Shown here piece after piece: positions 6,001 to 9,000 of a DNA stretch of 9,387 nucleotides. The stretch lies in IMG/VR virus record IMGVR_UViG_2684623171_000015. One strand, given 5' to 3'. Position 1 is the stretch's first letter. The number at the start of each line of letters is the position of its first letter. Position numbers: made by a program. Origin of the DNA: a virus. Its lineage: Duplodnaviria > Heunggongvirae > Uroviricota > Caudoviricetes.

Positions 6001-9000
6001 TTATTGTTCATAGCGTTTAAATCTCTCATCAATTAACCACAGCGCAACACTTCCAGAAAGTTTTGCCAGAAGGCCAGCTAATGCGGATATATCACCATCA
6101 TTTAATTTATTAGGGTACACCTCAAGAAGTCGGCAAATAATTTCTGTCTGGTGCGCACGTTCAGCGGCTTCGTGTAATGTAATTTCCTTCATTAATGCCC
6201 CCCTTTTAATTCATGTACTGCTGCAATAATTACATGTGATAAACCTGCTTTACCGGAATTACTGATTACTGAATCAATCGCCGCTTGCATATTAACGGCC
6301 TTCACGTTCTGCGTGATGCCAACGGTATAGCCGCGCTTGTTAACAGCACGGGAAAAAACGCGGAAGGTTTTAAGCACGGCACACCCCCTGACGAATACGG
6401 GCGACAAATACAGCAACACAACCTGACGGGCAACGGCTACGCGCTTCGCGTTCCGTCCAGGCGGTTACGTGGATGATTTGAGATTCTCCGGCACTCAGGG
6501 CCAGAAAACGCCAGATGTATTTATTCAGGTTGTGCGAGTCCCGCCCTTGCGGGTGTGTGGTATGATTTCTCATAGCTACCTCGATACTGTTGCTATCGTT
6601 GGTTGTTAGACGCCCTGTATGTGTGCCACCACTGCGGGGCGTTGTTATTTGGTGCATCGCACCATCTGTTTTTAACCTATCAGCAAGTGAATCGCACTTC
6701 AAGCCTTTTCTCTGAATTTTTTTTGTGTATACTGAATCGCACCAACTTAGAGAGGATTCAGTAATGGCAACAGGTTCAACAAATAATAAGTCGCAACAGT
6801 TAAATGCCAGATTCCCGCATGATGTTGTTGCAGACTTAGAAAAAAATTTAGATGAAGGTGAAAGCAAAGCGCAATTTATAGTTACTGCCGTTAAAGGCGA
6901 AATCAAACGCCGCCAGCGCCGCAAGGCCAAAGAGCAGGAATAGTCCACCAGCAAGCCAGCACACTGAGCACATTGCCCACCAGACAGCAAATCGCTATGA
7001 TGTTCGGGCTTATGTTTAGTGTTTTCCCATTGGCGACCGCCACAGGTCGCCTTTGTTTTATGTGTCATATGTTCCCCCTACGCTGCCTTACCTGAATTAA
7101 TACGATCCCGGCTTTTAACCCATTCCATAACCTCGGAAAGCAGCCAACCTACTGAACGACCACCCAGATTACGGCGTGACGGGAAATTCCCTTTTTTCTC
7201 CAGTTCGTAGCGTGTAGTGCGGCACACTCCTGTTAACTTACGGCATTCATCCTCACGGATTACGCGATCTGATAGTGATTGAAATTGTGTATTTTGATTC
7301 ATAAAAAAACGTCCTCGAACGTTGCCGAACGAGGACGATTCTAGGCGGTAGTAAAACGCCGTTTGTGTGATATCACACTACCAGCACGTGATATCACTTT
7401 TTACGTTTTTGTTGAGATTCACGCCCCAAATACTTTTGCCATGTCTGCCAATGTGTTTTTGGAAATTCTATCCCTCTGGATGCAGCTATAGAATCAATTA
7501 AATCTGCTATTTTAGGTAATGATTCCGTGTCCAGGTCTACATCACCCATTTCTGGAATAAGTTTAATTAAAGAGTAAATAACCTCATTCCTTTTTGACGA
7601 TGCTTTTGGGCTATCTTCTGTTATCTTCGGGAAGTCTCCCGTATTTTTTATATTATCTAAATCACTAGCCATCACACACAAATAGTTAACATCAAATTCA
7701 TAACCACCCTTACAAAAAACATACATGAGATTATCATCACCATACTTATTCGTAAGATGAGAACATTTTATATATTGTCTCATGCTAAATTCGACATCAG
7801 CAAAAACATATGCCGGAGTATAATAAAACCCTGATAAGCTGCTAACATAATAACATTTGATAGAATTCCCTACAGGACCAATAATGGCACTATCTAAAAA
7901 TTCAGTGTCACCAGTTAAACCAACTGTAAAATTACTTCCAAAAACAGCAGATTCATCATTGAAAGGATATTTTATTAATTCTTCCTCATTACAACCATTG
8001 ATAAAATGACATAATGAAAAATTGAATTTTTTAGCATCAATTTTTGGTATATATACAGAAATATTAAGAGCACCTATATATGCGTAATGATAAAGATCTT
8101 TTATTGCACAGCCTAACTTTTCTGCCGCTTCAGGTAACGGATAATAGAGTCTTTTAGGTAATTTCATTTGGCCACCTTCAGCATAACAATATTTTCATGA
8201 TTTCCAGCCAGCACATCGAGGCGCTCAACCCATAGATTAAGAGCGTCACGTTTTGCATCAAGATAACGGGAGTGATTATAGACTCGTTGCATTCCTGGCA
8301 ACTGGTGCGCGGTAAGCTGCTCCACAACATGCGGTTCCACGCCTAAATCGTTCAGCATCGTTGTAAACGTGTGCCGGATGTCGTGCAACGTCCAGGGGGC
8401 TTGATTAATGCGTCTGTGTGCCGTTCTTCCGTACTCTGATACGGATGATTGCCCTTTCAGTTCTCCGAGCAATAAGCCCGTGTGCCTGTTCTGCTCCACC
8501 AGCTTCATGACAAACGGCAAGATCGCTTCCGGTATTGGCCTGAATATTGCTACCTTCGTTTTGCTGTGTTCTTTCGGCACGGTCCAGAGCATTTCTTTAA
8601 AATCCCATTCCTGGACCTCAGAGCGTCTTAGCTCAGTGGTACGACATCCGAAGACAATCAGGAGGCGAATCAGGGCGCTGTAGTACGGTGGGTAAATTTT
8701 TTCATCAAGGGCGCGTAGTAATTCCCCAAGCTCCTTGTTTGTTAGTACGCGCTCGCTTATTTCTGCTTTTTTCCCAACATCACCGACAACCATATCATCA
8801 AGAACGTTGCTGATTGCGTATCGTCGTTTTCGGCAGTACTTAAGCGCCTGTTTGCATACCTGTAGCAAAAATCCGGCTGATACCGGATTACGCTTAGCAA
8901 GCTGGTCAAAACAGGCCAGCCAGTGGCGTAGCTCGCATTTTTCCAGTGGCATAGCTCCAATCTGGCTAATTATGTGTTTATTGATCCGGCTTTTCAGTGA

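Follow-up and report, generated by a model that had tools for sequence, protein, structure and literature searches.

A candidate switch ahead of alpA in a Gram-negative phage satellite: twin palindromes that accompany orf257 and a hairpin predicted to hide the alpA ribosome-binding site

This analysis concerns the 95 bases (7303-7397) that precede the alpA gene on the minus strand of a 9387-nucleotide stretch of viral DNA (IMG/VR record IMGVR_UViG_2684623171_000015; the whole stretch is called the window below), which corresponds almost exactly to one satellite island of ~9.5 kb. Our tentative reading, on which we are nearly evenly divided, is that this region is a composite, conserved switch made of operators for Orf257 (encoded between int and alpA), an insulating hairpin, a transcription start within the 5' arm of this hairpin, and a GAAC repeat serving as a feedback site. 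The reading rests mainly on two palindromes that follow orf257 from locus to locus, and on a hairpin whose pairing with the Shine-Dalgarno (SD) sequence of alpA is kept up by compensatory changes. The region would thus combine known kinds of regulatory element, paired operators and a terminator/anti-SD hairpin, with a previously unannotated family of candidate regulators.

AlpA is the helper-dependent, self-activating master activator of Gram-negative phage-inducible chromosomal islands (PICIs) (PMC6092414, PMC11773190). The role of likely island activator, which a preliminary description of this DNA had given to alpA, is supported by that literature (PMC6092414) and by the match of the gene product to Phage_AlpA (PF05930), which reaches 59.3 bits against a gathering cut-off of 21. 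Neither the phage inducer of alpA in Gram-negative PICIs nor a dedicated repressor or regulator is established in the literature (PMC6092414, PMC11773190). The locus supplies a concrete candidate for the way in which helpers switch on these islands: the Orf257 family together with an invariant putative twin operator before alpA.

The hairpin ahead of alpA

Immediately before the alpA AUG, the preliminary description had placed an 8-bp GC stem with a GNRA tetraloop and a U7 run. The stem, a GCAA loop and the U7 tract are all present, but a 2x2 UU/UU internal loop and two extra pairs, which had been omitted, separate the stem from the loop. On the minus strand the 5' half consists of CGUCCUCG (7337-7330), UU (7329-7328) and CG (7327-7326), followed by the GCAA loop (7325-7322), and the 3' half of CG (7321-7320), UU (7319-7318) and CGAGGACG (7317-7310), after which come U7 (7309-7303) and the AUG (7302-7300). 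The SD sequence GAGGA (7316-7312) lies within the 3' arm, as had been claimed, 9 nt ahead of the AUG. Folding of the minus-strand RNA, which had been named as a check, gave -17 kcal/mol and z = -4.9 for the hairpin alone; the whole 121-nt region also had z = -4.9, with equally good folds in none of 200 shuffles. A stable GC-rich hairpin with a U-tract of at least five residues directly after the stem is the sequence signature of an intrinsic terminator, and a simple terminator scan missed it solely through its rule on loop length.

To judge what is conserved, we aligned the hairpin from 16 distinct sequences, including those of loci in which a DUF6387 gene stands in the place of orf257. A hairpin ending 6-8 nt upstream of the alpA ATG was found in all 16. 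In the alignment, 93.8% of the cells were paired and 8 of the 10 pairs had changed on both sides, values that none of 500 shuffles reached, while slid controls gave only 31-52% pairing. Compensatory changes in the arms are exemplified by CGUCCUCG/CGAGGACG, AUGCUCUCG/CGAGAGCAU and AUCCACCUG/CAGGUGGAU. All wobble cells (15/15) were G.U on the alpA-sense strand, and 150 of 160 cells were paired in the sense orientation versus 137 of 160 in the antisense one. Such strand-specific G.U pairs indicate that selection acts on the sense transcript, and disfavour the interpretation of the arms as an inverted repeat in DNA. The SD sequence stayed within the 3' arm and paired in every relative, in spite of its variation (GAGAG, GAGGG, AGGTGG).

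In contrast to the stem, a T-run of at least five residues after it was found in only 8 of the 16 distinct relatives, suggesting that the conserved function is occlusion of the ribosome-binding site (RBS) and not termination. Judging from the alignment, RBS occlusion is the general function of the hairpin, to which intrinsic termination appears to have been added in some lineages, including that of the window. The earlier proposal that the hairpin both terminates and occludes thus stands for occlusion and, as far as terminator features go, for the window itself, but not for the half of the relatives that lack the U-run. No family in Rfam matched the region upstream of alpA.

Two further pairings were considered and rejected as general elements. 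An 8-nt perfect complement, AAAAACGU (7410-7403) with ACGUUUUU (7312-7305), also written AAAAACGT/ACGTTTTT, brackets the intergenic region and closes its minimum free energy (MFE) fold; it is confined to the clade of the window, in which Orf257 ends in ESQQKRKK, because most relatives are without the codons of this tail. A small GGCG/CGCC hairpin (7360-7344) was likewise clade-specific.

The preliminary description had further predicted that a transcript from a local promoter would be blocked in the same way as one entering from int and orf257. This does not follow, since 15 of 18 loci have a -10-like hexamer, TAGAAT in the window, directly against the hairpin; a local transcript would then begin inside the stem and be free of the anti-SD arm. 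In these 15 loci the hexamer, with A at position 2 and T at position 6, begins between -41 and -38 from the ATG. The distance from the end of the second palindrome to the loop-closing pair of the hairpin is 35-37 nt in all loci, while the sequence between them is unconserved, as one would expect if it were a promoter spacer. The -35 element is poor in orf257-type loci, and in DUF6387-type loci it is TTGCxx preceded by a T-rich tract. With TAGAAT as the -10 element, the 5' arm would probably contain the start of transcription, near 7330-7332. RNA beginning in the loop was computed to be unstructured (-3.7 kcal/mol, z = 0.56). The island is absent from the genome of strain Sakai, and public start-site maps of enterohaemorrhagic E. 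coli are therefore unusable for alpA.

The account closest to the preliminary description is attenuation, in which alpA transcripts from Pint or from a promoter located at the palindromes would be terminated and blocked in translation unless AlpA itself or a helper factor of the N/Q type served as antiterminator. That PICI AlpA activates its own expression (PMC6092414), and that AlpA of P. aeruginosa is a processive antiterminator whose target operons have intrinsic terminators before their first gene (PMC7969949), speak for it, as do the canonical form of the terminator directly ahead of the AUG in the window and the G.U asymmetry, which shows selection on full-length sense transcripts containing both arms. 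We nevertheless regard attenuation as unlikely. Besides the loss of the U-run in 8 of the 16 relatives that keep the hairpin, an occluded SD sequence would not be freed by antitermination, and the stretch between the candidate -35 and -10 elements is unconserved and contains no conserved sequence like the AlpA-binding element. Neither the MFE nor the centroid structure contained an antiterminator fold, no leader peptide open reading frame (ORF) was found, and the unconserved stretch between the second palindrome and the hairpin held no conserved site for the loading of an antiterminator. The attenuation proposal is partly supported, by a hairpin that is selected as sense RNA, always pairs with the alpA SD sequence and has the features of a terminator in the window. 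As the route by which alpA is expressed, a start site inside the hairpin and antitermination are equally good.

The twin palindromes and Orf257

Two exact dyads, 21 bp centre to centre, had been reported upstream of alpA, and both were confirmed (Table 1). Each is a perfect 10-bp palindrome, GTGATATCAC, the second one being the core of a longer dyad of 12 bp, TGTGATATCACA. Their centres, at 7392.5 and 7371.5, are 21 bp apart in the window and 22 bp apart in some relatives. The window contains no more than these two exact copies, and none occurred in 200 dinucleotide-preserving shuffles. The region has what would be expected of paired operators, namely helically phased perfect dyads and a sequence that is conserved amid diverged flanks.

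The latter was established by comparison with about 20 loci of related satellites. When viral contigs were scanned for two copies of GTGATATCAC lying 5-30 bp apart, 7 distinct satellite loci with twin dyads emerged, all with a gap of 11 bp and each with a completely different spacer. In all 7, the dyads start at or overlap the stop codon of an orf257 homologue (30-52% identity) and lie ~95 nt before alpA. As a scan for an exact pattern is biased, the test was repeated starting from Orf257 protein homology. This search found 19 Orf257 clusters, all labelled "hypothetical" and none with a Pfam domain, and the 9 genomic contexts that were fetched all had the order int, orf257-like gene, alpA. Of these 9 loci, retrieved by protein homology alone, 6 had exact twin dyads, separated by 11 or 12 bp. 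Two others, both from Klebsiella, had GTGAATTCAC and GTGATATC(cc/ta) in place of the exact twins, and the one with the most distant Orf257 homologue had no twin dyads.

Loci from E. coli, Salmonella, Providencia and metagenomes share invariant twin dyads around unrelated spacers. With few exceptions the first dyad overlaps the stop codon of orf257, and no further copy was found elsewhere within any of the loci. In contrast, loci with a DUF6387 gene in place of orf257 lack the dyads, even though alpA is 92% identical there. In four such loci from E. coli and IMG/VR (L004, L005, L229 and L237), the DUF6387 gene fills the slot between int and alpA, and the hairpin and U-run are kept while the dyads are missing. 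By this distribution, the palindromes belong to the orf257 module and not to alpA. Their invariance beside orf257 genes of only 30-52% identity, their absence with DUF6387, and the winged helix modelled in Orf257 make them most likely operators for Orf257, the predicted binder.

The AlphaFold2 model of Orf257 had a mean predicted local distance difference test (pLDDT) score of 78, exceeding 90 for residues 11-40, and consisted of three parts: an N-terminal beta-alpha-alpha-beta module, which models as a winged helix of the Xis/MerR type, a beta-rich middle and a helical C-terminus. Alignment of the family showed conservation at both ends, in the N-terminal module and in the C-terminus (...WQTWQKYLGR), against a highly variable middle; the predicted winged helix is the part of the protein that is conserved best. 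Orf257 is on this model a predicted DNA-binding protein, and its variable middle domain might sense the helper phage, which would make orf257 a candidate regulator linking such satellites to their helpers. The family comprises 389 cluster representatives at E <= 1e-3, is modular and has no Pfam domain. Sequence comparison of Orf257 with Pfam, PHROGs, NCBIfam, PADLOC and PDB profiles returned no meaningful match, no profile hidden Markov model (HMM) called a helix-turn-helix (HTH) motif in it, and Foldseek with the full-length model found nothing in the PDB at E <= 0.001. Orf257 homologues were absent from 50,697 phage records, and a scan of genome contigs with the Orf257 alignment found no relative. 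The modularity, noted with P0101, P0050, P0059 and P0069, shows in members with a duplicated N-terminal module, made of the winged helix and a beta domain, in members whose middle region is far longer, and in representatives that match the N- or C-terminal part only.

It could be argued that the dyads are bound by a factor of the helper phage or of the host, and that orf257 merely travels along as accessory or defence cargo. In favour of this, an as yet unnamed factor of the helper phages activates transcription of alpA (PMC6092414), either orf257 or DUF6387 can occupy the slot between int and alpA, and no profile HMM called an HTH motif in Orf257. However, the dyads track orf257 and not alpA, which is 92% identical in the DUF6387 loci that lack them, and the overlap of the first dyad with the orf257 stop codon recurs in nearly every locus. 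Moreover, the most conserved part of Orf257 is its predicted winged helix, PADLOC gave no match for the protein, and the viral scan found twin dyads on no enterobacterial phage contig. On these observations we consider a helper or host binder unlikely.

That the region is mere operon punctuation, with the hairpin as the int-orf257 terminator overlapping the alpA RBS by chance and the dyads as a stem-loop stabilizing the 3' end of the mRNA, is very improbable: the dyads can pair as a 10-bp RNA stem (-12.3 kcal/mol), the int-orf257 operon needs a terminator, and the intergenic region is only 91 nt long, but an RNA stem would be expected to covary and the dyads are invariant in sequence, their distance from the hairpin is fixed, and in the half of the relatives without the U-run the hairpin persists, with compensatory changes that preserve the SD/anti-SD pairing. 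The Klebsiella variant of the first site bears on the same point. Its TA-to-AT change leaves GTGAATTCAC a perfect palindrome but breaks its complementarity to the second site, and a change that keeps the self-dyad while spoiling pairing between the sites argues for DNA bound by a protein and not for an RNA stem. The stem-loop interpretation of the dyads was rejected on these grounds.

Other occurrences of the dyad and other likenesses were also set aside. A metagenome scan for twin dyads returned more than 120 stretches, of which only 2 were satellites, both near-copies of one locus (L076). Twin dyads with a 12-bp gap in low-GC phage contigs of ~57 kb turned out to be part of an unrelated ATGATATCA repeat array. 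In an unrelated family of low-GC phage contigs of ~35-60 kb (L016, L027, L029 and ~40 other IMG/VR loci, sample 3300045988), arrays of ATGATATCA(C/T), including twin GTGATATCAC with a 12-bp gap, lie upstream of a gene with a strong RBS and are presumably an operator array of another regulator. TGTGA/TCACA look like half-sites for CRP, and TATCAC like a half-site of the lambda operators, but both likenesses were rejected on spacing.

A possible mechanism and its relation to known systems

In the composite switch that we propose, a dimeric DNA-binding protein, most likely Orf257, would bind the twin dyads, which face the same side of the helix at a distance of 21-22 bp, just upstream of an alpA promoter with a weak -35 element, and would in this way set alpA transcription, by activation or by repression. 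If transcription starts as predicted, the dyads are centred at about -41 (-40/-41 for the proximal one with a start near 7331) and about -62. The hairpin would act on RNA that enters from the co-directional int-orf257 operon: its anti-SD arm would pair with the alpA SD sequence, and in the lineage of the window it would also terminate read-through at U7, so that alpA, as master activator and excision factor, would be insulated from integrase transcription. Transcripts of alpA's own, starting in the 5' arm and devoid of the anti-SD arm, would be neither terminated nor occluded. Such an arrangement would be a compact way of silencing a gene for excision and activation that lies right behind an integrase operon read in the same direction, as one hairpin would both terminate transcription and hide the RBS.

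The last component is the direct repeat GAAC-N6-GAAC, which lies within the hairpin and would probably give AlpA or Int a feedback site. This motif matched three times in the window against 0.26 matches expected, and none of 200 shuffles reached three. The 12-nt interior of the hairpin, (C)GAAC-N6-(C)GAAC, is conserved in all relatives, with the repeat on the plus strand in the window and in the alpA sense in most other loci. Read in the sense direction, the interior (7318-7329) is GUUC...GUUC here and GAAC...GAAC in most relatives (L024, L086, L095 and others); this opposite orientation among lineages suggests that the interior was flipped, as by recombination between the stem arms.

Several points weigh against the composite switch. 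A dyad of 10-12 bp is short for a dimer of the MerR/Xis type, and the linkage between the dyads and orf257 is no proof that Orf257 binds them. In 3 of the 18 loci the -10-like hexamer reads TTAAAT, without the crucial A in second place. Moreover, AAT of the hexamer pairs as the base of the stem (alignment pairs 14-45 and 15-44), which gives the conservation of the hexamer a second explanation. Finally, with its GAAC repeats located at about +1 to +20, the promoter would seem better suited to repression than to the self-activation of AlpA that was reported for other PICIs.

We also considered a broader proposal, that the Orf257 family is a dedicated regulator of a subfamily of Gram-negative satellites, which would bind twin operators at about -41/-62 of the alpA promoter through its Xis/MerR-type winged helix, sense a helper product through its middle domain and possibly act as an activator, as a functional counterpart of Stl of the staphylococcal pathogenicity islands (SaPIs), with alpA doubly locked, by termination and by SD pairing, against read-through from int, and with its own transcripts escaping the hairpin through a start within it. 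This is possible, but in its entirety we would lean against it. SaPI Stl is a satellite-encoded DNA-binding master repressor beside int, whose variable region senses helper-phage proteins and which gates the lytic programme. Orf257 resembles it as a putative DNA-binding regulator encoded by the satellite next to int; unlike Orf257, Stl is Gram-positive, divergently oriented and of another HTH class, and the position of the candidate Orf257 operators also fits an activator. A second parallel is lambda cI, which binds the paired operators OR1 and OR2, the promoter-proximal one lying near -42 of PRM. As there, the dyads are about two helical turns apart and the proximal one abuts a weak -35 element, a geometry that by analogy fits cooperative binding and class II activation. 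However, the lambda operators are 17 bp long and the dyads 10 bp, the fold of the protein is different, and the satellites have neither a divergent promoter nor a third operator here.

P4 offers a further comparison, as its Vis protein binds its own promoter and the att region. As in the window, the AlpA homologue of P4 is encoded first in a left operon, which runs from PLL through an icd/kil-like region to the primase gene (PMC10111431). P4 has no orf257 and no twin GTGATATCAC, and its PLL is activated by Ogr/Delta via a TGT-N12-ACA dyad at -55. Among PICIs, EcCICFT073 and EcCIMP1 share the order int, alpA, replication genes in the same orientation, and their AlpA is a Phage_AlpA protein. EcCICFT073-type loci also have CGAAC-type repeats upstream of alpA; in contrast to the window, their spacer of 416-419 nt between int and alpA is free of genes, and they lack both the GTGATATCAC dyads and a hairpin that would pair with the SD sequence ahead of the ATG. 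In EcCIMP1, the gene between int and alpA encodes a small protein unrelated to Orf257.

AlpA of P. aeruginosa, which controls alpBCDE and PA0807, is a regulator of the same name with a predicted winged-helix motif, and an intrinsic terminator lies immediately before the first gene that it regulates (PMC7969949). However, its binding element, GGGACG-N5-GGTA, is located between -35 and -10, and the terminator precedes its target operons and not alpA (PMC7969949), whereas the satellites have no conserved element of this kind, and not all relatives keep the U-run. With SD-sequestering hairpins and intrinsic terminators in general, the hairpin shares a GC-rich stem, a U-tract and an SD sequence in the 3' arm. 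It differs from them in that both functions would reside in one hairpin, which encloses a direct repeat of the DNA and has a probable transcription start inside its stem.

The island, its attachment arms and neighbouring genes

All core genes of the island are on the minus strand: int, orf257, alpA, an icd-like region, a DUF4222 gene, a D5-type primase gene, terS and a major capsid gene. With co-oriented int, alpA and primase genes, a size of ~9.5 kb, a probable att site and some phage morphogenesis genes, this layout is, by sequence, that of a Gram-negative PICI or P4-like satellite. The window is 100% identical to DNA in the chromosomes of E. coli O157:H7, O145:H28, O103:H2 and O121, where the satellite is inserted between cspD/yljB and clpS. 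Since the element is found in these pathogenic E. coli, its induction may bear on gene transfer or phage interference in them. The stop codon of int overlaps the start of orf257, and the two probably form a single operon reading towards alpA.

Table 1. Positions of the genes and regulatory features discussed in the text
Feature	Coordinates	Strand	Description
int	8164..9387	-	P4-type tyrosine integrase; stop overlaps orf257 start by 4 nt (ATGA, 8164-8167)
orf257	7394..8167	-	without annotation; N-terminal winged helix (model), variable beta-rich middle, conserved helical C-terminus ending WQTWQKYLGR
alpA	7078..7302	-	74 aa; PF05930 Phage_AlpA, E = 3.4e-16; phrog_2790 (excisionase and transcriptional regulator)
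Palindrome 1, distal candidate operator	7388..7397		GTGATATCAC; includes orf257 TGA stop (7396-7394)
Palindrome 2, proximal candidate operator	7367..7376		GTGATATCAC; extends to 12-bp dyad TGTGATATCACA at 7366-7377
TAGAAT, -10-like hexamer	7338..7343	-	putative promoter element; abuts hairpin 5' arm
RNA hairpin	7310..7337	-	5' arm CGUCCUCG (anti-SD), 3' arm CGAGGACG containing SD GAGGA
U7 tract	7303..7309	-	immediately 3' of stem; with hairpin, intrinsic-terminator signature
GAAC-N6-GAAC direct repeat	7317..7330	+	10-bp period; fills hairpin interior; motif of att-arm arrays
CGAACA x3 array	204..229	+	10-bp period; near far island end; same motif as hairpin loop

The GAAC motif of the hairpin recurs in arrays at the island ends. 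Equivalent CGAACA arrays were found upstream of int in the related locus L001 (14451-14553) and in all related loci. At each island end, two copies of TTAACTACACC are followed by three of CGAACA with a 10-bp period (172-229 and ~90-103 in the window; 14412-14572 in L001), and the int side has two additional copies of CGAACAC. The sequence ATAACTATCAT, common to both ends, is the probable att core, and the arm arrays are presumably sites for Int-arm binding or for AlpA as recombination directionality factor. The GAAC repeat before alpA is correspondingly a candidate feedback site for one of these two proteins.

Downstream of alpA, a 232-aa ORF on the minus strand (6370-7068) was probably over-called. 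Its matches to Icd-like and 'transcriptional repressor' families (NF033153, phrog_6196) are limited to the C-terminal third, and RefSeq has at this place a 67-aa icd-like gene with a YlcI/YnfO gene on the opposite strand inside the ORF. The region resembles the immunity region of P4, and an Rfam search there found no RNA. On the plus strand, opposite to alpA, a terminator-like hairpin (7032-7061; GGCGACC...GGTCGCC, then TTTGTTTTAT) sits downstream of the plus-strand YlcI/YnfO-family gene (6725-6943, phrog_949), where it would halt convergent transcription shortly before alpA.

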